64,000 nucleotides of DNA. Source: an uncultured Armatimonadetes bacterium. Its GTDB lineage: Bacteria; Armatimonadota; Hebobacteria; Hebobacterales; Hebobacteraceae. The first letter of the stretch is position 1. Each line of letters starts with the position of its first letter. Location of the stretch: assembly GCA_963716175.1 (NCBI GenBank), contig OY970296.1, forward strand, positions 3,264,001-3,328,000, read 5' to 3'. Below the pieces are notes generated by a model that saw nothing but the letters and a program-made list of their open reading frames with translations, made no database searches and was not told the origin of the DNA. A program made the position numbers and the translations under genes. Below are positions 2,040 to 19,617 of the stretch, in pieces.

Positions 2040-3674
2040 TTAGCGCATGCGCAGGAACATCTGGAAATCCTGAGGATTGCTTGCCATAGCCATGGCCGCC
2101 TGAGGAGTGACCTTGGCCTGGAGCACCAGGGCTTTGAGTGCCTGGTCGAGGGTCTGCATGCCGTCCCCTGCGCTGGATTGCAGCACTGAAGGCATCTGGT
2201 GGGTCTTCCCCTCCCGGATCAGGTTGCGAATGGCCGAGGTCGCCACCAGGACCTCCTGCGCGCACACCCGGCCCTTCCCATCGGCCAGCGGCAGCAGGGT
2301 CTGGCAGATAATGCCCTCCAACACGGTCGAGAGCTGCACCCGGATCTGCTCCTGCTGGTGGGGTGGGAACACATCCACGATCCGGTCCACCGTCTGCGCC
2401 GCGCTCGTGGTGTGGAGAGTGGCGAGCACCAGGTGGCCGGTCTCGGCCGCGGTGATCGCCGCGCTGATAGTCTCCAGGTCGCGCATCTCCCCGATCAGGA
2501 TCACGTCGGGATCCTGGCGCAGCACATGCCTCAGCGCGCTCGCGAAGGTCTTGGTGTCGCTTCCCACTTCCCGCTGGATGATGATGCACTTCTCATTGCG
2601 GTGAAGGAACTCGATGGGGTCCTCGACCGTGACCACATGGCAGCGGCGGGTGACGTTTATCTCTCGGATCATCGCCGCCAGGGTGGTGGACTTGCCGGAG
2701 CCAGTAGGGCCGGTCACCAGGACCAGGCCCCGGGGCCGGGAGCAGAAGGTCTTCAGCACATCGGGCATGCCCAGCCCGTCCAGGGAAGGAGGGTCAACTG
2801 GCACCGCCCGGAACACCGCCCCCAGCGTGCCTCGCTGTCTGTGGATGTTGACCCGGAAACGGGAATGCCCCGGAACGCTGTAGGCGAAGTCCAGCTCCCA
2901 GTTCTCCTCGAACTCGGTGATCTGTTCGTCAATCAGGATGGCGTAGATCAGCTCGTGCACCTTGCGCGGGCTCAACTTCTGGGCGTTGATGGGCACCAGC
3001 TCGCCGTCAATGCGGAGCGTGGGAGCAGTGCCCGCGCCCAGGTGAAGATCGGAGGCGCGCCGTTTCATCACCTGCCGGAGGAGGTCGTCCACATGCATCA
3101 CCTCCTCCGCCTCCGCGCCCGAGGTCGCGGTCCCGGGGCTGGTACGGCGATCCTCGCCGGCCCCTGCCGCGGGCCCCCTCAGCTCTCGGGAGAGCTGGCC
3201 GTAGAAGCGATCAATGGCGGTGCGGACATCGCGCTCAGTGGCTACCATTCGCTCCAGATGCATGCCGGTGCGAGCCTGGATGAGATCGCAGGCCAGGCCG
3301 TCCAGGGGGTTGACCATGGCGAGGTGCAGCGTGGTGTCCACCTGAGACACGGGCACCACGGCGAAGCGCCGCGCCATGGACTCCGGCAGCGCCCGGATGG
3401 CATCCAGGCTGGCCGCGGCCTTGGCCAGGTCCAGCAATCTCAGCCCCAGGCTCTTGCTGATCGCCTGGGCCATATCCTCCGGCGAGATCGCCCCCAGCTC
3501 TACCAGTACGCTCCCCAGCCAGCGGCCTTGGGCCTGATGGATTGCCTGTGCCCGCTCCAGCATGTGCACGTCAACTATCCCCTCGGCCTGCAGGATCTCG
3601 GCCAGCTGTTCGCTGTCCGACCTGGCCTGCACTTTGCCCGCGCCCGGGCTGTGGTCCATTCGAATTGGTGTCAT
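2040..3674 (-). CDS. pilT: PilT-family retraction ATPase with N-terminal MshEN/T2SSE_N domain
   Basis: ASDLHL, GPTGSGKSTT, TVEDPIE, LRQDPDVILIGEMRD, TGHLVLATLHT, AIRNLIRE; first ~160 aa resemble PilB N-domain (LGSVLVELG, AMVNPLD). Confidence 0.9.
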   Translation of the reverse strand: MTPIRMDHSPGAGKVQARSDSEQLAEILQAEGIVDVHMLERAQAIHQAQGRWLGSVLVELGAISPEDMAQAISKSLGLRLLDLAKAAASLDAIRALPESMARRFAVVPVSQVDTTLHLAMVNPLDGLACDLIQARTGMHLERMVATERDVRTAIDRFYGQLSRELRGPAAGAGEDRRTSPGTATSGAEAEEVMHVDDLLRQVMKRRASDLHLGAGTAPTLRIDGELVPINAQKLSPRKVHELIYAILIDEQITEFEENWELDFAYSVPGHSRFRVNIHRQRGTLGAVFRAVPVDPPSLDGLGMPDVLKTFCSRPRGLVLVTGPTGSGKSTTLAAMIREINVTRRCHVVTVEDPIEFLHRNEKCIIIQREVGSDTKTFASALRHVLRQDPDVILIGEMRDLETISAAITAAETGHLVLATLHTTSAAQTVDRIVDVFPPHQQEQIRVQLSTVLEGIICQTLLPLADGKGRVCAQEVLVATSAIRNLIREGKTHQMPSVLQSSAGDGMQTLDQALKALVLQAKVTPQAAMAMASNPQDFQMFLRMR

Positions 3675-3698
3675 TGCCTTCCCTCGTAGTGCTTGCAG

Positions 3699-5105
3699 CT
3701 AGCCACGGTCGCTGGCGGCGGTCTTTGCTGGTTCACCCATCGCGCGTCGCTCCGGGCTGCGCAGTGGCAGCGCCTCCGCCGGCTCCTCCCGCAGCACCGC
3801 CTCCAGCGCCTCCACCACGGCCGGGTCGTAATAGCTGCCGGCATGAATGCGGAAGTGCGCCAGCGCCTCCTGTTCGTTCAACACCGATCCGTAAGGCCGC
3901 TCTGAGATCATGGCATCGAAGCAGTCGGCGACCTTGACGATCCGCGCCAGCAGTGGAGTCTGCTCCCCGGTCAGGCCGTCCGGATAGCCTCGGCCGTCCC
4001 AGCTCTCGTGGTGGTTGCGCACCAGGGCCAGCGCCTCTCGGCTCGGCTTGAGGGGCCGGATGATGCGGTCCCCGATCACGCAGTGCTGGCGGCAGATCGC
4101 TCTCTCCTCCTCTGTGAGCACCCCTCGCTTCAGCAGGATCTCATCCCGGACGCCGATTTTCCCCACGTCGTGCAGGGGAGCGAACACCTCAATATCCCGG
4201 ATCGCCGTCTCCGGCAGCCCCATCTGTTCGGCGACCCTTACCGCCAGGGTGGCGACCCGCTGGCTGTGGGTGGCAGCGTAGTTATCTCTCGCGTCCAGCG
4301 ACCGGACCAGCGAGCGCACTGTCGCCAGGTAGCTTTCCCTCAGCTCGGCGTGAAGCTGAGCGCTCTCCAGCGCCTTGGCTGTCATGTTGGCAAGAGTGGT
4401 CAGGAGGTTGAGATCCCCCGGCGTGAACTGTGACCTCCCGTCTTCGCGGTGCGCCGCCAGCACCCCCGCCAGTCCGTTCTTGAGCCGAAACGGAGCCGAG
4501 ATCAGATCGGCGCGCTCGTTCCAGGCCTGCACCTGGGCCTCCACATCGGTCACGGAATCGCCGCCCGTGATCAGGGGCCCGGGCCAGACCTCCTGGGGGT
4601 TGGGCGCGGTCGCTTCGTGAGGCTCGCAGTAGCTGTGCGACTGGCGGGCATACACCGGGTGACCGCTCCTGGCGTCAACCAGCACCAGGTAGGAACGGGC
4701 CGCCTGCACGCTGTCCGCCAGCGCGTCTACCGCGCGCCGCGAGATATTGTCAACATCCAGCGAACCGGCCAGCTGAGCGCTAACGGTGCACAGGCCGTCG
4801 AGCTGACGCAGCCGCTCGTCCAGGTTGTCCACCGTCGCCCGCAGCTTGCTCACCAGGCGCCGGTTGGTGTACCGCTGCTCCCGCTCCCGGCCCACCAGAT
4901 AGAGAATGGCGCACAGCACCAGCAGCCCGAGCCCGGTGACCAGCACGACTTCATCGTAGGTCATGCCCAGGGTCAGCGGCTGGTAGCCGAACGCCAGCAC
5001 CACCGCCAACCAACTGGCGAAGATCACGATGAAGCTGATCGCCGTCCAGAGGATCTCCTTCCTCTTCTCATCCGGGTCCGAGCAGTCGCGAAAGAGCCGA
5101 TGCAA
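3699..5105 (-). CDS. Membrane-anchored GAF + HD-GYP cyclic-dinucleotide phosphodiesterase
   Basis: Two TM helices, coiled coil, GAF-like segment (FTPGDLNLLTTLA), HSQRVA, LHDVGK, HHESWDGRGYP, VADCFDAM; TTG start after GAGGAGG. Confidence 0.88.
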   Translation of the reverse strand: MHRLFRDCSDPDEKRKEILWTAISFIVIFASWLAVVLAFGYQPLTLGMTYDEVVLVTGLGLLVLCAILYLVGREREQRYTNRRLVSKLRATVDNLDERLRQLDGLCTVSAQLAGSLDVDNISRRAVDALADSVQAARSYLVLVDARSGHPVYARQSHSYCEPHEATAPNPQEVWPGPLITGGDSVTDVEAQVQAWNERADLISAPFRLKNGLAGVLAAHREDGRSQFTPGDLNLLTTLANMTAKALESAQLHAELRESYLATVRSLVRSLDARDNYAATHSQRVATLAVRVAEQMGLPETAIRDIEVFAPLHDVGKIGVRDEILLKRGVLTEEERAICRQHCVIGDRIIRPLKPSREALALVRNHHESWDGRGYPDGLTGEQTPLLARIVKVADCFDAMISERPYGSVLNEQEALAHFRIHAGSYYDPAVVEALEAVLREEPAEALPLRSPERRAMGEPAKTAASDRG

Positions 5106-5133
5106 GCCATTCCCTCCTCGCCCACGGGGCGGG

Positions 5134-5559
5134 CTACAGGTAGTGCTCCTCCCACGAGATCTGCGCCCACTGCGTCTTGCCCTTCCCGGGGATGGGCAAC
5201 CCGCCCCACACATCCCGGTATCTGACCGTGATGCCACCATTGGTGGTCACCACGTCGGCGCAGATGGCGCCGTAGATCTCGGCGTTACCGCTGATCTTGA
5301 CCGACTTGGCGGCGATCAGAGCGAGTGAGTCAGTGCTGGGATTGCCGGCGGTCACATTCCCGGTGATCTTGGTATTGCCAGTGGCCACGATCAACACATT
5401 GGTGTTGGTATAGTTGAAGATCACCGCCATCAGCTCAATCAGGCTGAAGCTCGGCGAGCGCCGTCTGAGTCGCCTGCTGTTGGAAAAGGTTGGTCTTTCC
5501 AGACCGCCCCGCGCGTGTGCTCCCACGCTCGTCTCACTCTCCAGGCTCTGCCAGCTCAC
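5134..5559 (-). pseudogene. Chimeric ORF: truncated prepilin N-terminus fused to PilX-like C-terminus
   Basis: RRRSPS|FSLIELMAVI pilin start breaks off at ~5419 into beta-rich sequence ending ISWEEHYL, typical of PilX-like minor pilin C-termini. Confidence 0.55.
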
Positions 5560-5632
5560 TCCCGGGGCTAGGCGCTTCGCGCCGCCGTGGCGGTTGGCAG
5601 GGCCGAGCTAGCCACTGGCAGTCCAGGTTACG

Positions 5633-5684
5633 CGGGGATAGCAGAAGTCGCCTGTTGGTGAGGAGGTTCCTTCTGCTATCCCCG
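5633..5684. repeat. Perfect 15-bp inverted repeat with 22-nt loop
   Basis: CGGGGATAGCAGAAG (5633-5647) and CTTCTGCTATCCCCG (5670-5684). Confidence 0.85.
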
Positions 5685-5714
5685 ACAAGTCATCTGCTGG
5701 GACGTATGCTGGGA

Positions 5715-5751
5715 GACGGCAAGGCTCCGGGAGCCGCCCGGAGCCGCCGTC
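5715..5751 (-). terminator. GC-rich hairpin just downstream of pilin gene (terminator or 3' stabilising stem)
   Basis: GACGGC..GGCTCCGG/CCGGAGCC..GCCGTC within 10 nt of the pilin stop; no U-tract. Confidence 0.45.
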
Positions 5752-5759
5752 AGCCCACA

Positions 5760-6203
5760 TTACCAGGTGCTGTAAGCGTCACCGTTGATCGCGGTCAGCG
5801 TGGAACCGCTGCTCACGTCGCCGCTGGTAGCAGTGTAGCTCCACGTGGTTGAGCTAGTAGTGAAAGGATCCGCGGGCAGGTTGCCATCCGGGGTGCGGAG
5901 ATACGGTCCCTGCCAGCCGTTGACGTCCAACTGGATGCTGTTGCCACCGTTGCTGCCATCCGCCGGTCTGGTCTGCAGGTCGACGATCGCGGCCGGGTAG
6001 TCGCCGCAGTCAGCCTCGAACTGCTGGATCGCATTCCGGATCTGATGCAGGTCACCCCGCAGGGTCGCTTCCTTCGCCTTGCGGCCTGCGCCGAGCAACC
6101 GCGGAATGACGATCAGGGCCAAGATGGCGATCACCACGATCACGATCAACATCTCGATCAGGGTGAAGCCCTTGTGCTTCCGATTCACCATTCGACTCAT
6201 CAT
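5760..6203 (-). CDS. Type IV pilin / GspG-like major (pseudo)pilin
   Basis: Class III signal RKHKG|FTLIEMLIVIVVIAILALIVIP; WQGPYL and PADPF motifs; AAGGAGG RBS. Confidence 0.92.
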   Translation of the reverse strand: MMSRMVNRKHKGFTLIEMLIVIVVIAILALIVIPRLLGAGRKAKEATLRGDLHQIRNAIQQFEADCGDYPAAIVDLQTRPADGSNGGNSIQLDVNGWQGPYLRTPDGNLPADPFTTSSTTWSYTATSGDVSSGSTLTAINGDAYSTW

Positions 6204-6311
6204 CGTCTTTCTTCACCTCCTTGGCACATGTGCCGAGTTGCTTTCATTCCTCAGGAGTGATCCCCCGCCGGGACGCGGACCGGCCCTCGTGGGGGTCCTG
6301 GCTTCTGAGAG

Positions 6312-6322
6312 CTTATTCCACA
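6312..6322 (-). promoter_or_regulatory. TGTGGAATAAG motif upstream of pilin gene
   Basis: Identical 11-mer at 19740-19750 upstream of the first pil-locus gene, same strand, similar distance to start. Confidence 0.45.
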
Positions 6323-6408
6323 GCCGGGGGCGGGATTTGAGATGAGAAACACCCCGCCCTCCAGGGAACGGGGTGCTTTCGGCTGATCGGCTCAGGCTGC
6401 GGCCTGGG

Positions 6409-7833
6409 CTAGGCCTGGCGGGCCGGGGCCGGCGCCGGGCCATTGCCTCTCGCCGCCGGCTGGGACCTGAGATAGCGGTTTCCACCCTCCCGGTAGGCCT
6501 CCTGGAGCGCTTCTTCCGCGGCCGACAGCAGTTCCTCCGGAGATCGGCCATTGGCCGGAAAGGCCCCGATCCCGATACTCACGGTGACCGGCTGATCTGC
6601 GGCGGCGAGCCGTGCGGAGATGGTCTTCAGGATGCGCTCGGCCAGCACTGCCGCCTCCCGGCCGGTGTGGGGGAGGAGCAGGCCGAAGCGCGTCCCCCGC
6701 AGCCGCGCCACCAGGTCAATGCTGCGCACGTTGGCCCGCAGCAGCCGTGCCAGGGCCCCCAGCTCTGCTCCTGCCAGATCGCCCTGGTCGGCCGCCAGCA
6801 GCAGGATCGAGAACTGCTGAGGATAGCGACGCGCGCGCTCCACCTCTTGGTTCAGCCGCTCCAGGAAGTACTGCTCGGTGGGCAACTTCGTGGTGGGGTC
6901 GGCCGGCGCCGGGCGCAAGGACAGAGAGTAAGCCCCAGAGGCGGCCCGGGTGTGCTCGGAGACCGGCTGCGAGTGAGCCCTCCCGTCGTCCTGGGCCTGC
7001 GCCTCCACGGCCTTCTTCAGCTTCGCCACCGCCCCCCGCAGCAGGTAGGAAGCGTAGTTGACCGAGATGCCCAGGCGGCGCGCGATCTCCGTCTGGTTCA
7101 GGTCCAGGTAGTAGAAATGGTGGACCACCTTCCGCTCCAGGGTCTTCAGCCTGGACATGGCGTCTCGCAGGAAGATCCGGTCCTCGATGGGCAGGTGCAC
7201 TTCGTCGCTGCGCTCGGCGCTCAGCTTCTCCGGATCCACGGCGGGGGCCTGGCTGTCATCATCGCTGCTCGCCGCGTCCAGCGAAGCCACCTTGCTGCGC
7301 TCCCGTGCGTCTAGCATCCGCCGGGTGCTCTCCTGGGTGGTGCCCACCCGCTCCGCAATCTCGGCCAGCGTGGGGGACCGATCCAGCTCCTGGGTGAGCG
7401 CGTCCGTGGCCTTCACGATCTTGGTGGTCAGCTCCTGCACCCAGGCCGGCTGCTTGATCAGCTTTCCCTTGTCTCTCAGGTAATGCCTGATCTGGCCTTC
7501 CACCAGGTGAGTGGCATAGGTCGAGAACTGCACCCCCCGGTCTGGGTCATAGAGGTCAACCGCGTTGATCAGGCCCATGGCACCTTCCTGGAGCAAATCC
7601 TCGTGGGACTCGCCCAGGCCGGCAAACTTGCGGGCCACCGTCTGCACCAGGTAGAGGTGCTGCGAGATCAGCTTATCCCTCAGCACTCGATCGCCCCTGC
7701 CCCGGTAGGCGCGGACGAGGGTGTCCACCTCCTCCCGATCCGGCGCCTTGCGCCTGGCTGGGGTCCCGGCGTTCTTCTTGCGGCTCGCGCCTGCGGCCGA
7801 GCCGCTCGACTTCAGCCGCTGTTGCTTTGTCAT
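6409..7833 (-). CDS. SigB/SigF/SigG-type sigma-70 factor fused to C-terminal degenerate GGDEF domain
   Basis: Region 2 EDLLQEGAMGLINAVDLYDPDRGVQFSTYA..GQIRHYLRD; region 3 SPTLAEIA; region 4 QTEIARRLGIS; GGDEF fold DPTTKLP..RSIDLVARLRGTRFGLLLP..VTVSIG..AEEAL..AYREGGNR. Confidence 0.88.
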   Translation of the reverse strand: MTKQQRLKSSGSAAGASRKKNAGTPARRKAPDREEVDTLVRAYRGRGDRVLRDKLISQHLYLVQTVARKFAGLGESHEDLLQEGAMGLINAVDLYDPDRGVQFSTYATHLVEGQIRHYLRDKGKLIKQPAWVQELTTKIVKATDALTQELDRSPTLAEIAERVGTTQESTRRMLDARERSKVASLDAASSDDDSQAPAVDPEKLSAERSDEVHLPIEDRIFLRDAMSRLKTLERKVVHHFYYLDLNQTEIARRLGISVNYASYLLRGAVAKLKKAVEAQAQDDGRAHSQPVSEHTRAASGAYSLSLRPAPADPTTKLPTEQYFLERLNQEVERARRYPQQFSILLLAADQGDLAGAELGALARLLRANVRSIDLVARLRGTRFGLLLPHTGREAAVLAERILKTISARLAAADQPVTVSIGIGAFPANGRSPEELLSAAEEALQEAYREGGNRYLRSQPAARGNGPAPAPARQA

Positions 7834-7933
7834 GTCGCCACCGGGCCCAGGCTATGGGTGCCCCGCCTGGGCTCTCGTCTCCTTTCCGTGTCCCCGCCGG
7901 CCAGACCCGGGGCTGGCTCCCCCGGTTTGGGCG

Positions 7934-9148
7934 CTACTTGCCCAGGGATCCGACCAGGGAGTAGATGGGAGAGATCACGGAGACCGCGATGAAGCCCACG
8001 ATCAAGCCCAGGCCCACGATCATCAGGGGCTCGATCAGGGAAGTGAGGGCCTTGAGCGTGGCGTCCACCTCTTCGTCGTAGAAGTTCGCCACCTTCACCA
8101 GCATCTGGTCCAGCCGGCCCGTCTCTTCTCCCACCGCGATCATCTGCGTCACCATCACCGGGAATACCTTGCTGCCGAACAGGGGGGTGCTGATCTTGTC
8201 GCCCTCTTTGATGCTGGTGCGGGCGCGGGCGACGGTTTCAGAGACCACACGGTTCCCCGCGGTGTCGGCGACAATCTCCAGCGCCCGCAGCACTGGCACG
8301 CCGCTGCTGATCAGGGTGCCGAAGGTGCGGGCGAAGCGCGACACCGCCGTCTTCAGCACTAGCTCCCCGAAGACTGGCACACGCAGCTTCGCAGCGTCAA
8401 TGGCGAAGCGGCCCTTCTCCGTGCGCGCCGCCATCCGGACGAAGATGAAGCTGCCCACCACCACCACGATGGCGATATACCAGTACTGGCGCACATAGGT
8501 GGAGCAGTTCAGCATCAGCCTGGTGGTGAGCGGCAGTTGCAGGCCCATGGTCTCGAAGATACCCTTGAACTTGGGCAGCACGAAGAAGAGCAGGCCGATC
8601 AGCATCAGCATCGCGAACACGAACACCACCGCCGGATAGGTCATCGCCGACTTGATCTTGTTGCGCGTCTCCTGCTCCTTCTCCAGGAAGGTGGCGAGCC
8701 GATCCAGCACCGTGTCCAGGATACCTCCCGCCTCTGCCGATCGGATCATGTTCACGTAGAGCGAGGTGAAGATGCGAGGGTGCTTCTGCAGAGCTTCGGT
8801 GAGGCTGGTCCCGCCCGCCACATCGCGCTTCACTGTGCTGATCACTTCTTTCAGCCGGGGGTTGCGGCTCTGCTTCTCCAAAATGTCCAGACATTTTACC
8901 ACGCTCAGCCCGGCGTCTATCATGGTGGCGAACTGGCGGCTGAACACCACCAGGTCCCGCAGCTTCACCCGCTGCATCGCGGAGAGCATGCCCTGAAGGC
9001 CGGCCCCGCCTCGTGTCTGACGAATGCTGAGCACATGATAGCGGAGGTCCGACAGCTTGGCCCGCACCAGCTCCAGGCTCTCCGCCTCCAGGGTGCCGGC
9101 CACCGTGCGCCCGCTCTGGTCCATGGCGCTGTAGCGGTAAGTTGGCAT
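7934..9148 (-). CDS. pilC: Type IV pilus platform protein PilC (GspF family)
   Basis: FSRQFATMIDAGL, AEAGGILD, SAMTYP, GEETGRLDQML, SLIEP. Confidence 0.95.
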   Translation of the reverse strand: MPTYRYSAMDQSGRTVAGTLEAESLELVRAKLSDLRYHVLSIRQTRGGAGLQGMLSAMQRVKLRDLVVFSRQFATMIDAGLSVVKCLDILEKQSRNPRLKEVISTVKRDVAGGTSLTEALQKHPRIFTSLYVNMIRSAEAGGILDTVLDRLATFLEKEQETRNKIKSAMTYPAVVFVFAMLMLIGLLFFVLPKFKGIFETMGLQLPLTTRLMLNCSTYVRQYWYIAIVVVVGSFIFVRMAARTEKGRFAIDAAKLRVPVFGELVLKTAVSRFARTFGTLISSGVPVLRALEIVADTAGNRVVSETVARARTSIKEGDKISTPLFGSKVFPVMVTQMIAVGEETGRLDQMLVKVANFYDEEVDATLKALTSLIEPLMIVGLGLIVGFIAVSVISPIYSLVGSLGK

Positions 9149-9380
9149 TAGCTCTCTCCTTGCTCCCAGCTCCGGACTTGCGCCCGTCGCCCCCTCTGGT
9201 ACGATGGCACGCCTCACCGCGTTCGTGGCGGTGCGCTTGCCTGGGGGCAGGTCCTCTCTCCCCGCCTCTGGCGCGAGGCGGGCCGCCGCCGTTCGCCTGG
9301 CGCGGCCTCAGGTGCCGCTTTCCGTCACCGGCCCCGGGGCGCTGCGCCGCGCTTATCTATTCCGTGTTTTCCACCTCACT

Positions 9381-10466: not shown

Positions 10467-10467
10467 C

Positions 10468-12183: not shown

Positions 12184-12235
12184 GTCCCGGTTTAGGCTCT
12201 TTCCATATTTGCGCGCTTCTGGGGGAAGGCGCCTC

Positions 12236-12274
12236 ACAGACAAGAAGGGGGCCTGCCCGGTGGGGCAGGCCCCC
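12236..12274 (-). terminator. Intrinsic terminator-like hairpin between pilQ and pilB
   Basis: 12-bp perfect stem GGGGGCCTGCCC/GGGCAGGCCCCC, 4-nt loop, followed on minus strand by TTCTTGTCTGT. Confidence 0.6.
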
Positions 12275-12400
12275 AAGCCGGCGCCATGATCCGCTATGTC
12301 GTCCTAGTAGGCTCGGCGTCTCTCAGCCGAGCCCCCGTTAGTTGTCGACATCGTCCCTTTTCGGAATAGAGGCGCCAGGCCCGTCAGGCCCGGCCCCGGG

Positions 12401-14278
12401 CTAGGACTCGACTATCGTCGGGGTCACGAAGACCATGATCTCAGTGTGCTGTGGGCGCTTCTCCACGTGCTTGAACAGCTCCCCAGCAATCGGCAGGTTC
12501 CCCAGGAACGGCACCTTCTTGATCGTCACCTGCTCCTGGTCGGTCACCAGTCCCGCCAGCACCGCGGTCTCGCCGCTCTTGATCCGCACTGTGGTGATCA
12601 CCGTGCGCGTGGCGACCACGGGCAGTTGCGCCGCGGTCGTGCCCACCAGCGAGGAAACCGTCGGCGAGATGGTCATTGTGATCTCGTTGTTCTCATTCAC
12701 CCTCGGGTTGACCGACAGCAGCACGCCGACATCAATCGTTCTGGTGTCGGTGATGATCCCACCGGTGGTAGCGGCCGCAATCGCCACCGTGTAGTAGATG
12801 GTCTGGCCGGTGTGCAGCGATGTCTGTCGGCCGTCCAGCGTGGTGACACTCGGGTTGGACAGGATGCGGGCGCGGCCCTTCTGCTCCAACGCGCGAAGCG
12901 CCGCGTCCAGCTGGAAATCGGTTCGCAGGATCCGGCCGACATTCAGCGGTCTCATCACGGTGGCGTCGGGCTTGCCCGTGTCGGGGTCGATCTCCAGCGG
13001 CTCGCCGATGATGAAGGGCACGCCGGTCTCGCCCAGGCCCCGTCCCGTGGACTGGCCCCAGTCAATGCCGATGCGGGAGACGTCATCCCGGTTGATCTCG
13101 GTCACCATGGCGGTGATGTGCACCTGCCTGGGGGCCTTGTCGAGCTGCTCGATCAGCTTCAGCCCGCGCTCGACGGTGTAGGGCGCGCCGGACAGGATCA
13201 GGGCCGTGATCGGCGCCGCCTCTACCTGCACGCCGGCAGTGCCTCCGGCGCCGCCAGCCCCGCCCCCGCCCCCGCCGCCACCGCCCGCGTACTGCGGAGC
13301 GGCCAGCATCGCGGCGGTGCCGCCGGCTCCGCCGGTGGCTCTCTGCACCACAGGCGTGAACGAGCGCGGCGCCAGGGTCACGGTGAGGTCAGGCACCAGC
13401 GCCATCACGGTCTGCTGCAGCTCCGTGGGGCTGGTGTACTTCACGTAGTAAATGGCCTGCGTCGCCTGCGCCGGCGCTGGCGCTGCATCCGAGGCCGAGA
13501 CCAGCGAGCGCACGGACTGCCACTGCTGGTCGGTGGCCGTGATCAGCAGGCTGTTCTCCTGCGGCCCGAGCTGCACTTTCACCTCCGGCACCGCAGCCGA
13601 GATCAGCTCGGCCATCTGGTCCGCCTTCAGATACCGCACCGGCACCACTTCCGTGGTGGGCGGTGAGGGCGGGGCCGGCACGTCCATCTCCGCCAGCGCC
13701 CGCTCTGCCTTCGCCAGGGAGGACTCAGTCCCCAGCAGCAGGATCGAGCGCACCCCCTTCTGCGTAGACACGGTGACATCGGGGGTCAGCTTGGAGAGCG
13801 CCTGTTGGGCGTATTCTGGCGAGATGTGCTGCAGCACCACCACCGCCGACCGCAGCTCGGAGACGCGCATGGCGCGCACCTCTTCGGGCGTGCCCACCAC
13901 ATAGGCCGCCTCCACCCAGGCGTAGTCCAGTCCGTTGAGTCTGGTGACGATGTTCATGGCCTGTTCAATGGTGACATTGCGCAGGCGTAGCGTGGCCTTC
14001 CCCTTCACGCTGCCGCTCACCGCGATGTTGACTCCACTCTGCGTGGAGAGGGCCTGGAACACGTCTACGATGTCGGCATCCACAAACTCGAGCGTGAATC
14101 TGGCCCACGATGGGGCTCCCACTGGGGTTCCCCGGCCGCCGGTGTAGGCCAGGCCCGTCGCGCGCGCCGCTTGGGCCCCCGGCTTGGCATGTCCGTTGGC
14201 CCAGGCGACACTTGCCGCCAGCAGCCAGACCAATGCAATGGCCAGGCTGCTCCATACCGCATGCTTTCTGCGAGTCAT
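12401..14278 (-). CDS. pilQ: Secretin PilQ/GspD
   Basis: Signal peptide; N0 (TLEFVDADIVDVFQAL); N-repeats; secretin C-domain (QVHITAMVTE, ARILSNPSVTT, KVPFLGNLPIAGELFK, VFVTPTIV). Confidence 0.92.
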   Translation of the reverse strand: MTRRKHAVWSSLAIALVWLLAASVAWANGHAKPGAQAARATGLAYTGGRGTPVGAPSWARFTLEFVDADIVDVFQALSTQSGVNIAVSGSVKGKATLRLRNVTIEQAMNIVTRLNGLDYAWVEAAYVVGTPEEVRAMRVSELRSAVVVLQHISPEYAQQALSKLTPDVTVSTQKGVRSILLLGTESSLAKAERALAEMDVPAPPSPPTTEVVPVRYLKADQMAELISAAVPEVKVQLGPQENSLLITATDQQWQSVRSLVSASDAAPAPAQATQAIYYVKYTSPTELQQTVMALVPDLTVTLAPRSFTPVVQRATGGAGGTAAMLAAPQYAGGGGGGGGGAGGAGGTAGVQVEAAPITALILSGAPYTVERGLKLIEQLDKAPRQVHITAMVTEINRDDVSRIGIDWGQSTGRGLGETGVPFIIGEPLEIDPDTGKPDATVMRPLNVGRILRTDFQLDAALRALEQKGRARILSNPSVTTLDGRQTSLHTGQTIYYTVAIAAATTGGIITDTRTIDVGVLLSVNPRVNENNEITMTISPTVSSLVGTTAAQLPVVATRTVITTVRIKSGETAVLAGLVTDQEQVTIKKVPFLGNLPIAGELFKHVEKRPQHTEIMVFVTPTIVES

Positions 14279-14282
14279 GGCG

Positions 14283-14864
14283 CTACTGCCTCCCTCCCAT
14301 CCGTAGGATGACCTTCCCTTCTTTGCCTGTTAGCACTACTTCTTTCGAGCCGACCGACTGCACCCGGTAGCGATCCCCAATGCGGTCGCCGGCCTTCACG
14401 TAGTAACGCTGGTCCCCCTCTCGAATCACCGCCATCGCCTGTCGCCCGGCCACGATCCCGGCCAGGATCAGCCCGGTCGCGGGGGCCTCGCCGCCTTTGG
14501 CCGCCGCGGTGCTGCTCACCCTGGGTGGCATCGCCGCCGGGGCTGGGGATGCCGCGGGCGCGCTCTCTCCGGCCGCGGCCGGAGGCCGCTTTGCGGGCTC
14601 CCCGGCGGCCTGAGAAGCGGCGACGCTGGGCCCGGCGAACGGGTTGCGGGGGGTGCCGCTGGTCCCGGGCGCGGCTGCCAGCGGCAGGCCTGGCTTGGCC
14701 GCCTCCCCCGCGCCCGCTTTCCCCGCCTGCGGCTTGGCCGGAGAGGCGGCCGCGGGCTTTGCCGGGGGCACGGGCGGCGGCCTGTGGCGGAAGGTGTAGA
14801 CGGCTACCGCCAGCGCCATCGCCGCCAGCACCAGCAGGAGAACATCCTTGCTACGACGTCCCAT
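14283..14864 (-). CDS. PilP/GspC-like pilus assembly protein
   Basis: Between pilO and pilQ; TM anchor, RNPF motif, C-terminal beta domain LAGIV..AVI..YYVKAGD. Confidence 0.7.
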   Translation of the reverse strand: MGRRSKDVLLLVLAAMALAVAVYTFRHRPPPVPPAKPAAASPAKPQAGKAGAGEAAKPGLPLAAAPGTSGTPRNPFAGPSVAASQAAGEPAKRPPAAAGESAPAASPAPAAMPPRVSSTAAAKGGEAPATGLILAGIVAGRQAMAVIREGDQRYYVKAGDRIGDRYRVQSVGSKEVVLTGKEGKVILRMGGRQ

Positions 14865-15534
14865 CTTTCCCCCCTTTCCCGATCACCGCGGTCAGCTCCA
14901 TGGTCGCCATCAGCTCCGGCGACTGCATCAGTGAGCCCGTCTGCTTGGGCGAGAAGGCGATATCATTGACCGCGATCATCTTGGGGAACTGCTGCAGCTC
15001 CTTCAGGAAATCCAGGATCGTGGTGTAGGTGCCCTCGATCCTCAACTCGATGGTCGAGTAATCATAGGGGAGCTTGCTCTTGTCCACCTGCTTCGCGTCC
15101 TTGGCATTGGGCCCGGAGGGCGCGTTCGGTTGCTCCTTCACCACCTCCCCGGTCTCGTTGTTCACCGTCACCGCTGCGGTCTTGCCGCTGGGCGCCTTCG
15201 CCTTGGGTCGGATCATCACAATCCGGTTACTGGTCTGCGTGGCCAGCCGCTCGATCTGGCGCAGGAAAGTGGGCATGTAGGAGCTGTCCGGCAAGGCCGG
15301 CTCCAGCACCGAGAGCCGCGCCTGCAGCTTGGCGTACTTGGCCTCCAGCTCCGGCTGCTTGGTGAGCTTCTCTCGCACCTGCGTCAACTGCTGGTCCTTG
15401 CCGCTCAGCTCCTTCGCCAACCGCGTCAGCTCGCTGCCCTTGGCCCGGTAGAGACTCACTCCCAGGCCGGTCAGGCAGACCGCGGCGATGCCCAGCAGCG
15501 CGTAAATCACTTTGCGATCGGCGCCTACGCTCAT
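14851..15534 (-). CDS. pilO: Type IV pilus alignment protein PilO
   Basis: TM, coiled coil, LP..MPTFLRQI, IEGTYTTILDFLKEL; position after pilN. Confidence 0.85.
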   Translation of the reverse strand: MSVGADRKVIYALLGIAAVCLTGLGVSLYRAKGSELTRLAKELSGKDQQLTQVREKLTKQPELEAKYAKLQARLSVLEPALPDSSYMPTFLRQIERLATQTSNRIVMIRPKAKAPSGKTAAVTVNNETGEVVKEQPNAPSGPNAKDAKQVDKSKLPYDYSTIELRIEGTYTTILDFLKELQQFPKMIAVNDIAFSPKQTGSLMQSPELMATMELTAVIGKGGKDGTS

Positions 15535-16124
15535 TTCAACCCGCTCCCGATGATCTGGCTCAAGGGCACTGTGATCTCGAATTGGATGACACTGCGTCCT
15601 TGCTGGGTCACGTTCATCTGGGTGAAGCCGAGGGCCGGGGCCTTGCTCCAGGCCGGCTTATCCAGGTTCAGCATGAACTCCCCGATGTCGCTCTGGTTGA
15701 AGGCCGAGCCCCGGAGCGAGAGCACCTGCTCCTTCTCCGCGCGATGCGAGCCCAACTGGGAGAGCCAGACATTCCCTGCCGTCGGCACGCAGGCCCCGAC
15801 GTCCCGCAGGATCTGGATCCACGCCTGCTCGCTGTCGTGCACCTTCTCCAGCAGATCCACCCGCGGCTCCAGCTTCCCGATATTGCCGTCCAGGAACTGG
15901 ATGCGGCTCACCGCTTCCGCCAGCGTGGGATCGCTCAGCTTCGCCTCCACCTCCGCGATGCGACCCTGGGTCAGCTTGGTGGCCGCGGTCAGCCGCGCGT
16001 AGAGCAACGCCACCGCCAGGAACAGCACGATCAGGGAGTACACCGCGCAGCGCAGGATGGTGATGGCGCGCTGCTTCTGCCGCCTGCGGCCGGCTATGAG
16101 ATTGATGTCGAGCACGGTGGTCAT
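15531..16124 (-). CDS. pilN: Type IV pilus alignment protein PilN
   Basis: DINLI motif, TM, VP..VWLSQL, LRGSA; follows pilM. Confidence 0.87.
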   Translation of the reverse strand: MTTVLDINLIAGRRRQKQRAITILRCAVYSLIVLFLAVALLYARLTAATKLTQGRIAEVEAKLSDPTLAEAVSRIQFLDGNIGKLEPRVDLLEKVHDSEQAWIQILRDVGACVPTAGNVWLSQLGSHRAEKEQVLSLRGSAFNQSDIGEFMLNLDKPAWSKAPALGFTQMNVTQQGRSVIQFEITVPLSQIIGSGLK

Positions 16125-17290
16125 GGGCTTTTCTCCCCGGGATGGGTGCGCTTCTGGCGAGAGAGCAAGAGCTCTCGCAACGCCAGCCCGGCGGCCACCA
16201 GCAGGGTGGGCGCGTGCGACTGCAGGTATTCCTGGTTGACGCCCCGCGCCTGAAGCCGTTCAGGCCCGAACACGTTCAGCACTCCCACCGGCACCCCGAG
16301 CTGGGCCTGGAAGTACTCCTCGATGCGGGGGAGCTTGGCGCTCCCGCCGCTCAGCAGGATCTGGTTGACCCCCAGCTCCCCGCTGCCCGCGTCCGGTGAC
16401 TGCTGCTGGTAGTCGTGGAAGGCCAGCGAGCGGCGCACCTCGCGGATCAACTCGTCCAGCAGCGGCTCGATCGCTCGGCTCGCCTGCTGTGCCGCCGGGT
16501 CCAGGGTGGCCCGCTCTTCCTCGCTCAGCACCACCTGAGTGGCACTCTCCTTCAGCCGGTTCGCCTCCTCCAGGTCCACGTCCAGAGCATTCTTGATGGC
16601 ATCGGTGAAGGCATTGCCCGCGATGGGGATCATGCGGCTGAGCACGAACTCAGCATCCTTCACCAAGGTGATCTCGGTGTAGGCCGCGCCGATGCCCACC
16701 AGCGCGATGGTCTCGCCGTTGCTCTGGGTCTGGCCATTGCCGGCCACCAGGCCCCGCAGCGCCGCGAAGGGTTGGATCTCCACGGCCAGTGGCTCCAGCC
16801 CCGCCAGCTCCAGTGTCTCCACTTGGCTGTCCACCATGTCCCGGGGGGCGGCCACCAGCAGCACCTTCATCTGGGCATTGGTCCCCGGCGCCGCGGGCCG
16901 ATCCACCACCTGGAACTCCACCACGCTGTCCTCCACCGGAAACGAGATGTAGTTCCTCGCCTCCCACTGGATCGAGCGCCGGAGCTGCCGGTCGGACATG
17001 GCGGGCAGGGGCACCTCTCGCACTACCACGGTGGGCCCGGCAATGCCGGCCACCGCGGTGGCGGCATCAATCTGCAGCGCCTCCAGCAGCGCACGAATGG
17101 ACTGGGCCACCGCCAGCGGGTCCACCACCACCCCGCCCTTGATGGCATTGGCGGGCGTAGGAGCGCTGCCGGCCTTGTGCAGGGCGAGCCCGTCTCGGCC
17201 CTCCTGCAATTGCACCAGCTTGATGGCATTGCTCCCTACATCAAGCCCGATGGCTGTGTTCCCTGATCCGAACTTCGAGAATAGCCTCAT
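16121..17290 (-). CDS. pilM: Type IV pilus assembly protein PilM
   Basis: IGLDVGSNAIK actin-like motif, IQWEA..YISF, LSGGSAKL, AAGLALR. Confidence 0.93.
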   Translation of the reverse strand: MRLFSKFGSGNTAIGLDVGSNAIKLVQLQEGRDGLALHKAGSAPTPANAIKGGVVVDPLAVAQSIRALLEALQIDAATAVAGIAGPTVVVREVPLPAMSDRQLRRSIQWEARNYISFPVEDSVVEFQVVDRPAAPGTNAQMKVLLVAAPRDMVDSQVETLELAGLEPLAVEIQPFAALRGLVAGNGQTQSNGETIALVGIGAAYTEITLVKDAEFVLSRMIPIAGNAFTDAIKNALDVDLEEANRLKESATQVVLSEEERATLDPAAQQASRAIEPLLDELIREVRRSLAFHDYQQQSPDAGSGELGVNQILLSGGSAKLPRIEEYFQAQLGVPVGVLNVFGPERLQARGVNQEYLQSHAPTLLVAAGLALRELLLSRQKRTHPGEKSP

Positions 17291-17321
17291 AGTTGGTCTG
17301 CTCCAGGTCCGCTTGCGAGCT

Positions 17322-18011
17322 TCAGCTCACCTTCACCCCGCCCTCCCTTTCCGGAGAGCGTTCGTCCGCTCCCGGCCGCGCCGGGGTGAGATAGGAGCTG
17401 CGCCCGAAGTCGATCTCGCCTCGCGCCGCCGGCAGCTTTCCTCCGCTGATGATGACGTCCCCCGTCTGCCCGGTCGGGTCCCACTCCTCCACGATCCCCT
17501 CCGCCAGCAACTCGGTCACCCCGTGCAGCGCCTCCACTGGCTCTATCCCCGACTCCCGGATGATGGTGGCGACATTGCGCCGGGCATCCACCAGCCGCAG
17601 CACCGACTGGGCCTGCGGCGAGAGCGACTCATAGCGCTCGTTCACCGCAAACGCCCGCTGCCGCAGCACCACGTGCATGTTGGGCATCTCCTCCTCGACC
17701 CGCTGCCACTCGTCGAAGCGCTTCATCCCCTCCAGGATCAGCGCCTCCGTGCTCTGCGTGATCTCCCTCGCCACCGGCTCCTCGCTGCGCTCGAAGGTGA
17801 AGTCCCCGTTGCGCCATCCCAGCACGCGGTAGACCACCTCCGGCCCTCGCTCCCGCCGGGAGATGGCGCGCACCACTTCCCCGTTCACGACGAACAAGTC
17901 CACTCGCTCCGTGCCCCGCCACACCTGCAGCCGGCCGCTCTTGTGGCTCACGTTTAGTAGCTGCACCAGCTCCGCGAAGCTGATATCTTCGAAGCTGCCG
18001 GTAAGTGCCAT
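17322..18011 (-). CDS. DUF4388 (PatA_N-like) domain protein
   Basis: MALTGSFEDISFAELVQLL..SGRL..GEVVRA..WRNGDFTF..LILEGMKRFDEW followed by winged-helix-like segment. Confidence 0.85.
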   Translation of the reverse strand: MALTGSFEDISFAELVQLLNVSHKSGRLQVWRGTERVDLFVVNGEVVRAISRRERGPEVVYRVLGWRNGDFTFERSEEPVAREITQSTEALILEGMKRFDEWQRVEEEMPNMHVVLRQRAFAVNERYESLSPQAQSVLRLVDARRNVATIIRESGIEPVEALHGVTELLAEGIVEEWDPTGQTGDVIISGGKLPAARGEIDFGRSSYLTPARPGADERSPEREGGVKVS

Positions 18012-18029
18012 CCTGCCGTCCCTAGCGCC

Positions 18030-18632
18030 TTAGGCCACGCCGGCCCGTTGCTTATGCGCGAGGTTGCTCAACACCCGTACGCAGATCGCGTTCAGACACT
18101 GGAATACGCCCTCCCCCTGAATCGCAACCCCCTCCAGGCTGGGCACCTGCCGCGGGTTGATCACATACTGCAGATATTCCACGGGTGCGATGTTGGCCAG
18201 ATCCCGCTTGTTGTACTGCACCACGTACGGCGTGGTCTCCAGGCTGTACCCGTAGGCCGCCAGGTTGTCTGTCAGGTTGCGGAAGCTCTCCAGGTTCTCC
18301 CGCATCTTCTCCCACTGCGAGTCGCACACGAAGATGACCCCATCCACTCCTCGCAGCACCAGCTTTCGGGTGGAGTTGTACATCACCTGGCCCGGCACCG
18401 TGTAGAGCTGGAACTTGGTCCGGAACCCGTGGATCTGGGCCGCCTCCAGGGGGAGGAAGTCGAAGAAGAGGGTGCGTTCGCCCGGGGTGGCGAGCGACAC
18501 CATGTTCCCCCGCTTGTCCGGCTCCGTGTGCTGATGGATATACTGCAAGTTCGTGGTCTTGCCGCACATGCCCGGCCCGTAGTACACGATCTTGCAGCTG
18601 ATCTCTTTCAGGGCGTAGTTGACGGAGGCCAT
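18030..18632 (-). CDS. mglA: MglA-family small Ras-like GTPase
   Basis: KIVYYGPGMCGKTTNL, RTLFFDFLP, YTVPGQV, QYNKRDL. Confidence 0.95.
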   Translation of the reverse strand: MASVNYALKEISCKIVYYGPGMCGKTTNLQYIHQHTEPDKRGNMVSLATPGERTLFFDFLPLEAAQIHGFRTKFQLYTVPGQVMYNSTRKLVLRGVDGVIFVCDSQWEKMRENLESFRNLTDNLAAYGYSLETTPYVVQYNKRDLANIAPVEYLQYVINPRQVPSLEGVAIQGEGVFQCLNAICVRVLSNLAHKQRAGVA

Positions 18633-18666
18633 CGCTCGAGCCGTCCTTTCTCCCGTGGTCCCTTGC

Positions 18667-19617
18667 TCAGACGGTGGCGAACAGCACCGACTCGGTCTCG
18701 CTTACTTTGGCCCACGCAGGTGGGGAGGGAGGAGGAAGCTCAAGCGCCTCGGGCGGAAGCTGGGGCACGATCCACTCCAGGGGCAGAATCACCAGCGCGG
18801 CCTCGCGCTCCAGGTCGAACTCCAGAGGCGCCCGCATCGTCCCCGGCGGTAGCCATTCGTGCAGGTCTATCAGCCGGGCCACGATGCGCGCCTCTCTTAG
18901 CTGTGGGATGATCACCTCCAAAGGTATTGGCACTGGGTGCGATTCGTCGTAGTCGTGCACATTCTCGCCCCATAGGTCTTCCGGTACCTGCGCCAGCAGC
19001 GGCCGCAGCGGCACCTCCACCGTGCCCTCCAGCTCCATCAGCGGTCGTGCCAGATCCTGCGGCTGATTCCCGAGCGAGCCCTTGGCCCGCGTATCCCATA
19101 CCGGGATCGCTTGGTCCCCACCCACCAGCACCAGAGCGGGATCGCCATCTCGCCTCGGGCCTGCGGCGGAGACCGCCGCCGCGCTCTCCGCGAACCGCTT
19201 AGTGGACCGCTTGCCAACACTCCTCACGGGAAGCAGCACGCGCAGAGGGTAGAAAATCATGAGCGCGAAGAGAGCGGTGCAGACCCGTGGCCCCAGGGTG
19301 GCGGTGCGGTCCAGGGCGAGGGTAAGGTCGGTGACTCCTTGAAACAGGTTCAGCGCGAGGGCGGCCGCAGTGGCCAGCGCCAACCGCAGGAACACCAGCA
19401 CCAGGATGCCCAGCATCCATCCGCTGAGCGAGATCCCCGATCGCCAGGCGTAGACCGCGGTGCCGAAGATCGCGATCTCCACCGCCCAGGCCGTGGGCCC
19501 GGAGATCTGCCATTCCGGCGCGGACTTGATCTGGGCCACTTGCAGGCAAAGCACTACCGCGGCCACGAAGGAGATGGCCATCGACAACGCGCTGATTGCA
19601 GTGAATTCCCTGCGCAT
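18667..19617 (-). CDS. Membrane protein (4 TM) with cytoplasmic C-terminal repeat domain
   Basis: Hydrophobic N-terminal half; three V/I-x-x-PL..I/L.xQ(L/V) repeats; GGAGG RBS; first gene of pil locus. Confidence 0.65.
   Translation of the reverse strand: MRREFTAISALSMAISFVAAVVLCLQVAQIKSAPEWQISGPTAWAVEIAIFGTAVYAWRSGISLSGWMLGILVLVFLRLALATAAALALNLFQGVTDLTLALDRTATLGPRVCTALFALMIFYPLRVLLPVRSVGKRSTKRFAESAAAVSAAGPRRDGDPALVLVGGDQAIPVWDTRAKGSLGNQPQDLARPLMELEGTVEVPLRPLLAQVPEDLWGENVHDYDESHPVPIPLEVIIPQLREARIVARLIDLHEWLPPGTMRAPLEFDLEREAALVILPLEWIVPQLPPEALELPPPSPPAWAKVSETESVLFATV

Follow-up and report, generated by a model that had tools for sequence, protein, structure and literature searches.

A type IVa pilus locus of Armatimonadota with a sigma factor-GGDEF fusion and a candidate cyclic dinucleotide and G-protein control layer

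What decides when a bacterium makes type IV pili, and what sets the direction of their motors, is the question raised by a stretch of 64,000 nucleotides (the window; G000:C1:3264001-3328000) from the genome of an uncultured Armatimonadota bacterium. This genome, G000, is 4.56 Mb long in one contig (C1), with a G+C content of about 67%, and between window positions 2040 and 19617 it carries a pilus locus that also encodes a sigma factor fused to a GGDEF domain, an HD-GYP enzyme, a PilT-family ATPase with an MshEN domain and an MglA-type GTPase. The original prediction was that these parts form a candidate self-contained circuit through which cyclic di-GMP (c-di-GMP) could act on pilin transcription and on motor direction at once. 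We find a layered locus, with pilC and the sigma-GGDEF gene as a core that is spread throughout the phylum and with MglA, a PATAN protein, the membrane protein TM316, HD-GYP and MshEN-PilT as a shell that is specific to one class. As a whole, we lean towards the explanation that this region serves the Armatimonadota class in question as its main type IVa pilus locus.

The locus and its sigma-GGDEF fusion

All real genes of the region lie on the minus strand according to open reading frame (ORF) calls, Pfam and NCBIfam, in the transcription order TM316, mglA, PATAN, pilM, pilN, pilO, pilP-like, pilQ, pilB, pilT, pilC, sigma-GGDEF, pilin, a remnant ORF, GAF-HD-GYP and MshEN-PilT (Table 1). Of a type IVa machine, the locus encodes PilM, PilN, PilO, the secretin, PilB, PilT and PilC, and its prepilin carries an N-methylation motif (N-terminus KGFTLIEMLIVIVVIAILALIVIPRL). 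The inventory given in the original prediction, in which a co-oriented machine is accompanied by sigma-GGDEF, a membrane-anchored GAF-HD-GYP enzyme, an MshEN-PilT beside a normal PilT, MglA and a DUF4388 (PATAN) protein, was confirmed in every part. So was its statement that the window holds neither an active cyclase nor a prepilin peptidase: a scan of the 31 remaining window ORFs turned up no gene of the GGDEF, Roadblock or prepilin peptidase kind, and both functions are encoded elsewhere, the peptidase PilD by two PF01478 matches at 4,143 kb and 24.5 kb of the genome. The circuit is not self-contained, since five intact GGDEF domains ((G/A)GDEF), the one PilZ protein of the genome, an MglB orthologue and PilD all lie outside the window.

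Conservation of the locus was assessed in one genome per species, which gave 40 loci with a relative of sigma-GGDEF, and their gene content was read by tblastn with the window proteins. Where labelled, these loci belong to Armatimonadota (Hebobacteria, Abditibacteriales and Fimbriimonadia), save for one Actinomycetota contig, and the closest relatives of the locus proteins are likewise Armatimonadota metagenome genomes wherever a label is given. In 31 of the 40 loci, pilC is the gene immediately upstream of that for sigma-GGDEF, and in 13 a pilin gene comes immediately downstream of it. HD-GYP follows downstream in 10 loci, 9 of which also have MshEN-PilT. The full order of pil genes, sigma, pilin, minor pilins, HD-GYP and MshEN-PilT was found in eight loci (L006, L008, L009, L011, L013, L015, L017 and L038; L009 starts only at the PilP-like gene, at a contig end), and the short contigs L005 and L007 have the same order as far as they extend. 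Together with the adjacency of MglA and PATAN in 20 of 22 MglA loci, this bears out the conserved co-occurrence of sigma-GGDEF, HD-GYP, MshEN-PilT and mglA for which a synteny search had been proposed. Among 201 sampled genomes of the phylum, a sigma-GGDEF match (E <= 1e-40) was found in 154, some of which, mostly in families f32 and f7, match in the sigma part only. In contrast, MglA was found in 22 (all 20 genomes of the window's class and 2 of the 3 in family f11) and full-length MshEN-PilT in 19, all within the window's class. It is this difference between a phylum-wide gene and genes that are nearly or wholly confined to one class that makes the locus a layered one. The contig labelled Actinomycetota (L032, SYMT01000040.1) carries pilT, pilC and sigma-GGDEF and could stem from mis-binning or transfer.

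In the sigma-GGDEF protein, sigma regions 2, 3 and 4 were all found by Pfam, and the GGDEF domain matches PF00990 with 81.7 bits. The best subfamily model for the sigma part is TIGR02980 (SigB/SigF/SigG), at 180.3 bits and below its cut-off of 234.35, and the closest solved relatives are Staphylococcus aureus SigB (1.2e-29) and sigma-F (1.7e-29). The translation reads RGTRF at the GGDEF motif and RSID five residues upstream. R370 and D373 of this RxxD are invariant in 26 of 26 sigma-GGDEF proteins of 43-78% identity, while the catalytic motif position varies freely; the I-site expected in the original prediction is thus kept, and its invariance despite a decayed active site is the pattern of an I-site receptor. 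We therefore regard the domain as a catalytically degenerate GGDEF with an I-site and as a putative nucleotide receptor. In an AlphaFold model built on the 26-member alignment, the sigma domains are well folded, the GGDEF domain has a predicted local distance difference test score (pLDDT) above 90, and residues 287-306 form a disordered linker; the modelled GGDEF superposes on solved GGDEF domains (4iob, root mean square deviation of 2.5 over 158 columns).

Degenerate GGDEF domains that serve as I-site receptors are known in PopA, PelD, SgmT and CdgA, which like the domain studied here have the GGDEF fold, have lost the active site and have kept the RxxD. The output of such a receptor is a proteolysis adaptor, the synthesis of polysaccharide, the localisation of a kinase or the invasion of prey, and to our knowledge none of them is fused to a sigma factor. 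Our literature search, which covered titles and the beginnings of abstracts, found no paper on a sigma-GGDEF fusion, in Armatimonadetes or elsewhere. The genome has a second, shorter sigma gene of a related kind (L048, G000:C1:971903-973045), with regions 2 and 4 and no region 3. Its C-terminal tail is degenerate and GGDEF-like, is 27% identical to sigma-GGDEF and keeps an RxxD (RVLD), and the word TATGGAATAA, a variant of the promoter-like word described below, stands 15 nucleotides (nt) before the ORF.

Table 1. Genes and candidate control elements of the pilus locus, in window coordinates
Feature	Position	Strand	Basis
Candidate operon-head promoter: ATGGTA 19770-19765, 14-nt spacer, TGTGGAATAA 19750-19741	19741-19770	-	Exact decamer, 123 nt before TM316
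TM316, membrane protein of no family, 316 aa, first gene of the unit	18667-19617	-	ORF call
mglA, Ras-like polarity GTPase, 200 aa	18030-18632	-	Match to solved Myxococcus xanthus MglA
PATAN/DUF4388 stand-alone protein	17322-18011	-	PF14332
pilM	16121-17290	-	Pfam and NCBIfam
pilN	15531-16124	-	Pfam and NCBIfam
pilO	14851-15534	-	Pfam and NCBIfam
pilP-like gene	14283-14864	-	Position and weak T2SSC match (26.6 bits, under the cut-off of 27)
pilQ, secretin	12401-14278	-	Pfam and NCBIfam
Stem-loop, 12 bp of which 11 GC, then TTCTTGTCTG; lies where ~217 nt separate pilQ from the likely start of pilB	12247-12274	-	Scan for terminator-like structures
pilB, extension ATPase with N-terminal MshEN	10468-12183, probable start Met32 (ORF open to 12276)	-	TIGR02538, PF05157
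pilT, retraction ATPase of ordinary length, 367 aa	9381-10484	-	TIGR01420, 476.8 bits
pilC, platform protein	7934-9217	-	PF00482, twice
Sigma factor (regions 2, 3, 4) with GGDEF	6409-7833	-	Pfam and NCBIfam
Terminator-like hairpin 6366-6352, then candidate pilin promoter: ATCTCA 6343-6338, 15-nt spacer, TGTGGAATAA 6322-6313	6313-6366	-	
Major pilin	5760-6203	-	PF07963 and PF08334
Remnant ORF, 141 aa	5134-5559	-	Comparison with related loci
Membrane-anchored GAF-HD-GYP	3699-5105, 468 aa (ORF open to 5240)	-	PF13487 and GAF
MshEN-PilT	2040-3674	-	PF05157 and TIGR01420

Within the pilMNOPQ stretch (12401-17290), neighbouring ORFs overlap or are at most 4 nt apart, and pilT overlaps the end of pilB. 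The stem-loop in front of pilB could split or attenuate what would otherwise be one long operon. A 112-aa ORF at 6213-6551 was rejected as an out-of-frame shadow over the 3' end of the sigma gene that extends into the gap before the pilin. Elsewhere in the window, a serpin gene (520 aa) lies beside a divergent gene for a trypsin-like peptidase (30980-33663).

A conserved word upstream of pilus and signalling genes

The locus appears to be organised in at least two transcription units with a common promoter type. One copy of the decamer TGTGGAATAA precedes the operon head, and a second copy, together with a hairpin, sits in the 205 nt that separate the sigma gene from the pilin. Families f1, f2, f3 and f5 have, in 14 of 14 loci (the window's own included), a word of the form T(G/A)TGGAA(T/G)A at the corresponding place before their TM316 orthologue, as do 5 of 5 loci in a second comparison, and it is kept there although the TM316 orthologues themselves are only 28-56% identical. 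A two-block motif precedes the pilin in related loci, with the decamer T(G/A)TGGAATAA exact in 9 of 13 and a looser pattern in 12 of 13; the exception, L015, has CGTGGAAGAA. Immediately behind the sigma gene, relatives retain a copy of this candidate promoter down to 37-39% sigma identity (L033 and L035).

Genome-wide, G000 has 19 copies of TGTGGAATAA and 2 of TATGGAATAA, compared to an average of 1.0 for 4,200 words of the same composition, among which it ranks 11th, behind repeat and coding words. The decamer was also in excess over the reversed word in five of five other Armatimonadota genomes (21/2, 17/3, 9/4, 12/1 and 15/0). The signal is confined to the exact word, since the 9-mer with one mismatch is not enriched in the window (18 against 13.3 expected), and a strict search of the genome for ATCTCA-N15-18-TGGAATAA returned the pilin site only. 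Separately, the 10-mers AGGTTATGAA, GGTTATGAAA and AAGTAATGTG occur 139, 137 and 41 times in the genome and probably belong to a dispersed short repeat element.

A same-strand ORF begins within 240 nt behind 20 of the 21 sites in G000, and 17 of these ORFs were scanned with Pfam (of the other three, two are the window's own genes and one is a 73-aa ORF outside the scan). The pilus genes among them are the operon head, the major pilin and a pilin paralogue. Signalling genes comprise the sigma paralogue that keeps the RxxD, a GAF-GGDEF, a GAF-HD-GYP and a GGDEF-HD-GYP protein, four histidine kinases and two response regulators. A polysaccharide deacetylase, MotA/ExbB, a surface protein of the PKD/SLH kind and three unassigned genes complete the list. 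In G183, a genome of another family in which 20 of 21 sites were examined, the decamer stands before the operon head, the pilin beside its sigma-GGDEF gene, a second pilin and a DUF1559 pilin-like gene, and also before GAF-GGDEF, a MASE9 protein, MotA/ExbB and CheW. The word is thus a conserved upstream element whose constant members are pilus genes and a GAF-GGDEF cyclase, and it may function as a promoter.

In wetland and peat metatranscriptomes, four runs belonging to four studies gave RNA-library contigs over the pilin with its 5' leader (5689-6248), and one of these runs also gave coverage within the sigma gene (6861-7121). These data consist of contigs, which show neither starts, strand nor level. 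The pieces over the pilin, some of them with loose ends, end at 6241-6248, about 60 nt downstream of the start expected from the decamer. No piece covers 6258-6860 or 5205-5688, which in contigs of this kind is not readable as absent read-through or as a transcript end.

The operon head, the two retraction ATPases and the HD-GYP enzyme

For TM316, the first gene of the long unit, four transmembrane helices are predicted, together with a linker that is disordered and, at the C-terminus, a domain in which three repeats resemble [VIL]P[LF]xx[IV][IV]xQ[LV]P. It has no NCBIfam match, no usable match in the protein atlas and no Pfam match up to E 10 save one chance-level AraC row. Its model (pLDDT 71) gave nothing at E <= 0.001 in Foldseek against the PDB and only helical-bundle matches in a wide structure comparison (VIA; residues 7-134, Z <= 6.7). 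The relatives of TM316 form 71 protein clusters, none with a Pfam domain, and the named ones are Armatimonadota. MglA aligns with the solved M. xanthus protein over residues 1-191 (E 4e-71), is a single-copy gene in the genome (one tblastn match), and has a P-loop, an R53 and a Q82 that are invariant in 19 orthologues. The PATAN protein scores 85 bits with PF14332, compared to a gathering score of 25, and has a conserved C-terminal helical domain in an alignment of 17 orthologues. In families f1, f2, f3 and f5, all 14 loci have the order TM316-MglA-PATAN-PilM. The spacing between mglA and the PATAN gene is 18 nt in the window's family, and in family f4 a Roadblock/MglB-like gene (L083:2049-2552) lies between the two. 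Directly upstream of the window's operon head, on the same strand, is a gene for a PASTA-domain Ser/Thr kinase of the PknB type (20008-21678), and among 14 related mglA loci, nine (L068-L071, L074-L077 and others) have a PknB C-terminal match at that place.

The MglA/MglB polarity module and PATAN proteins have been described (PMC4316618, PMC11580455), with R53 as the intrinsic arginine and Q82 as the catalytic glutamine of MglA (PMC4316618). PATAN neighbours of mglA were noted already by Wuichet and Sogaard-Andersen in 2014 (PMC4316618), and cyanobacterial PATAN response regulators were reported to contact the pilus motor (preprint 10.1101/2021.06.11.447907). The local MglA resembles this module in keeping both residues, and an MglB orthologue is encoded at L001:1390-1857 (E 1.6e-20 to solved MglB). 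The difference is that here mglA heads a pilus operon together with an uncharacterised membrane protein while MglB is unlinked. It is likely that the PATAN protein is an adaptor and that TM316 is a membrane anchor.

MshEN-PilT is a true PilT-family protein, with 485.6 bits for TIGR01420 compared to a cut-off of 319.1. Both PilTs have the Walker A, the His box and (A/G)IRNLIRE (GIRNLIRE in the ordinary PilT, AIRNLIRE in MshEN-PilT), and the Walker B pattern was matched in MshEN-PilT only, the ordinary PilT reading DPNVVLIGEMRD at that place. PilB scores below the cut-offs of both TIGR02538 (612 bits, cut-off 675.65) and the GspE model TIGR02533 (608.1, cut-off 630.25). The MshEN domain (PF05157) scores 68.8 bits in MshEN-PilT and 68.5 bits in PilB, and the N-domain of MshEN-PilT can be aligned with those of PilB, PilF and MshE. 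Like these proteins (PMC5013675, PMC11656802), MshEN-PilT has an N-terminal MshEN domain on a secretion-type ATPase. The known cases are extension ATPases, whereas here the domain is found on a retraction ATPase of the PilT family, and in the two local repeats the first Arg is missing, as is the Gly of repeat I. Our literature search found no MshEN-PilT fusion; the supplementary architecture tables of Wang et al. 2016, which lay outside its coverage, could hold one. The best reading of MshEN-PilT is that of an accessory motor for retraction, with a PilB-like N-domain through which it would reach the place where the extension motor docks. It is possible that the protein binds a nucleotide, and the motif test described below gives this no support.

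For the HD-GYP gene, the most likely start is TTG 5105, preceded by a GAGGAGG ribosome site, which gives 468 aa in agreement with the 473-aa orthologue in L006. The protein has a GAF domain, an HD-GYP domain (PF13487, 115.7 bits) with intact motifs (LHDVGK for the HD, HHESWDGRGYP for HHExxDGxGYP), and two hydrophobic N-terminal segments.

A proposed working, its precedents and its rivals

In the working that we propose, TGTGGAATAA at 19750 would drive a first unit that runs from TM316, mglA and PATAN through pilMNOPQ, the stem-loop, pilB, pilT and pilC to the sigma-GGDEF gene, and the second copy (6322), behind the hairpin, would drive the major pilin and by read-through possibly HD-GYP and MshEN-PilT. 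How much of a cyclic dinucleotide (most probably c-di-GMP) is present would depend on cyclases encoded elsewhere, and the membrane GAF-HD-GYP enzyme of the locus, among others, would lower its level. The dead GGDEF domain may sense this dinucleotide through its I-site and thereby alter the availability of the sigma factor for RNA polymerase, either through nucleotide-bridged GGDEF dimers or through docking of GGDEF on the sigma domains, which would amount to an anti-sigma factor built into the same chain. Such a switch would tune the pilin and pilus genes and several c-di-GMP enzymes and so create a feedback loop on the messenger. On the side of the motors, MglA-GTP together with PATAN, TM316 and the unlinked MglB would decide where or when PilB and the two PilTs engage, and MshEN-PilT may act as a second retraction motor that docks at the site of PilB through its PilB-like N-domain, with or without nucleotide. 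What the analysis establishes is the make-up of the domains, the conserved residues, the synteny, the distribution and the conservation of the word; the binding events, the promoter specificity of the sigma factor and the sign of the regulation we infer, and the control of motor direction in the original prediction is pure conjecture. For the explanation as a whole we have slightly more confidence than doubt.

The closest precedent for c-di-GMP acting on a group-3 sigma factor, as proposed here, is the (RsiG)2-(c-di-GMP)2-WhiG complex of Rubrobacter radiotolerans and Streptomyces (PMC8325347, PMC7005675), which according to the former paper is the only known sigma/anti-sigma pair targeted by c-di-GMP. 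Of the 12 target promoters mapped for Rubrobacter WhiG, 3 lie in a pilus cluster and 5 before genes for diguanylate cyclases or phosphodiesterases (PMC8325347), the same mix as among the genes behind the local decamer. In that system, the anti-sigma factor is a separate coiled-coil protein with the motif E(X)3S(X)2R(X)3Q(X)3D, and the sigma factor is of the FliA/WhiG type with the -10 element GCCGATAA. Here, in contrast, the putative sensor is a dead GGDEF domain of another fold that is fused to a SigB/SigF-like sigma factor in another phylum. In Synechocystis PCC 6803, SigF, a sigma factor of group 3, reads pilA1 through a GGTAA element at -12 (PMC2532724). It is dedicated to this major pilin promoter and its own gene, and GGTAA by eye resembles GGAATAA, but SigF is cyanobacterial and has no sensor domain.

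Several findings weigh against the proposed working. The sigma-GGDEF model has no confident packing of GGDEF on the sigma domains (predicted template modelling score, 0.42). The MglB gene is at about 480 kb, roughly 2.8 Mb from the locus, beside a second Roadblock gene. The original prediction took the MshEN domains to bind c-di-GMP, and this cannot be taken for granted here: neither in PilB nor in MshEN-PilT is there a match to the c-di-GMP motif of two 24-residue repeats, RLGxx(L/V/I)(L/V/I)xxG(L/V/I)(L/V/I)xxxxLxxxLxxQ, or to its relaxed pattern (Wang et al. 2016, PMC5013675), and with NF053729, a model for the c-di-GMP motif with a cut-off of 38, PilB passes (40.8) and MshEN-PilT fails (36.5). 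Among 72 MshEN-PilT sequences, the window's included, the first Arg of repeat I is replaced by Gln in 55 and its Gly by Ala in 67, and in all 72 the first Arg of repeat II is replaced by Trp within a nearly invariant GRWLG. Binding of c-di-GMP by these domains is doubtful because the published motif is unmatched. As for the HD-GYP enzyme, the part of the prediction that stands is that its motifs are intact. The closest solved relative, V-cGAP3 (5z7c, 4e-42), is specific for 3'3'-cyclic GMP-AMP (3'3'-cGAMP), and the c-di-GMP enzyme PmGH comes next (4mcw, 5e-31); because of this, the substrate may be c-di-GMP or 3'3'-cGAMP, between which sequence cannot discriminate.

From the MshEN and HD-GYP results it could be argued that the parts are conserved neighbours and not one nucleotide circuit, with the GGDEF of the sigma factor as a structural, dimerisation or partner module, the MshEN of the PilT used for docking only and HD-GYP acting on the global pool or on 3'3'-cGAMP. 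Docking at the base of the machine is established for the N1 domain of GspE with GspL, and the absence of both HD-GYP and MshEN-PilT downstream of the sigma gene in L010, L014 and L019 indicates that the parts are separable. We nevertheless consider this reading unlikely, because an RxxD that stays invariant in a decaying domain is what I-site receptors look like, and because HD-GYP and MshEN-PilT, 24 nt apart in the window, go together in nine loci. The deviations of MshEN-PilT from the published motif are themselves conserved, which argues that the family is under selection, and the conserved GRWLG variant suggests that a ligand or partner site has been kept.

The chances that the fused sigma factor is the reader of the decamer promoters are about even. 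A different sigma factor, either the housekeeping one through an extended -10 element or another of group 3, could read TGTGGAATAA while sigma-GGDEF controls a different set of genes. The decamer could be a variant of the housekeeping extended -10, since the ribosomal RNA promoter of the genome (TTGACA-N17-CAGAAT) has TGTGG in its spacer and no 5-mer precedes TATAAT more often than TGTG(C/G). The -35 regions of the 21 G000 sites differ and showed no shared element, the genome has other sigma genes resembling sigma-GGDEF (tblastn matches at 3,373 kb, 2,318 kb and 3,570 kb), and the decamer in G183 also precedes unrelated genes and ones of an ordinary housekeeping type (P-type ATPase, MerR, YmdB and a solute-binding protein). 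That another sigma factor is the reader is nonetheless the less probable case in our view. The decamer has an A where the housekeeping -10 has its first T and never a T at the last -10 position, the 19 TGTGG sites continuing with AATAAC (8), AATAAG (7) or AATAAA (4) and none with AATAAT. Sigma factors of the SigB/SigF type recognise -10 elements of the GGG(A/T)A(A/T) type, such as GGGAAT or GGGTAT, from which the core TGGAAT differs by one base, and the sigma part of the fusion is SigB/SigF-like. The promoter copy that persists behind the distant sigma genes of L033 and L035 also speaks for the fused sigma factor, as do the likeness of the gene list to the Rubrobacter WhiG regulon and the precedent of SigF at the Synechocystis pilin promoter.

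A further possibility is that the locus is decaying in this genome. Related loci have three minor-pilin-type genes between the pilin and HD-GYP (e.g., L006:12024-14746), which are missing here, a loss of about 2.2 kb. The ORF at 5134-5559 joins a minor-pilin N-terminus, with Ser before FSLIELMAVIF in place of the Gly required ahead of a cleavage site, to the C-terminal end of the third gene and, judging from this comparison, is the remnant of the deletion. Since three minor-pilin genes are lost, the local pilus system may be impaired, and this too counts against the working that we propose. The loss could prevent the priming of assembly, another pilus cluster having taken over: further PilB/PilC/PilM/secretin-type sets are present at about 3246000-3258200, just upstream of the window, and at about 4143000-4148400, the latter with PilB, a PilT and PilC and with PilD beside them, and the genome has about ten PilT-like matches, including a run of four at 2347-2352 kb. 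Against such a decay, which seems very improbable to us, all other genes of the locus are intact with a high third-position G+C content, RNA contigs from four libraries cover the pilin gene, and minor pilins may come from elsewhere. In the related metagenome contig L005, pilin and HD-GYP are likewise just some 330 nt apart, and a lineage with the short form may therefore be viable.

A more elaborate version of the proposed working has two messengers. In this version, sigma-GGDEF would be a one-chain nucleotide-gated sigma factor that reads T(G/A)TGGAATAA at pilus and cyclase/phosphodiesterase genes in a closed feedback loop, and HD-GYP and MshEN-PilT, with its non-canonical GRWLG repeat, would form an arm that answers to a different dinucleotide, e.g., 3'3'-cGAMP. 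Two otherwise intact GGDEF domains of the genome (G000:C1:1454083-1454538 and 4502100-4502588) have Ser nine residues after the N/G of LTGLxNR, a position that is Asp in PleD and where we take Ser to be the mark of cGAMP-making Hypr GGDEF enzymes; it is this Ser, together with the closeness of the HD-GYP enzyme to a cGAMP phosphodiesterase, that points to 3'3'-cGAMP for the second arm. We regard the two-messenger version as improbable; if it were true, transcription and retraction would be under separate messengers. One of the two Ser-bearing domains belongs to the GGDEF-HD-GYP protein behind a decamer site.

In conclusion, each part of the locus is of a known kind, while its control layer is unusual and partly undescribed. 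What is new here is the picture at the level of the locus, with its layered distribution, its loss of minor-pilin genes and an MglB that is not linked to it, together with the negative outcome of the MshEN motif test and the conserved promoter word with its list of genes. The word provides a first regulon prediction for Armatimonadota. The operon head of MglA, PATAN and TM316 would offer a diderm, non-proteobacterial case of G-protein control of pili, and a retraction ATPase with the regulatory N-domain of an extension ATPase would bear on how motors compete for the base of the pilus. A sigma factor with a fused sensor would, if our reading is true, be a second and simpler route from c-di-GMP to a sigma factor, phylum-wide and linked to pili.

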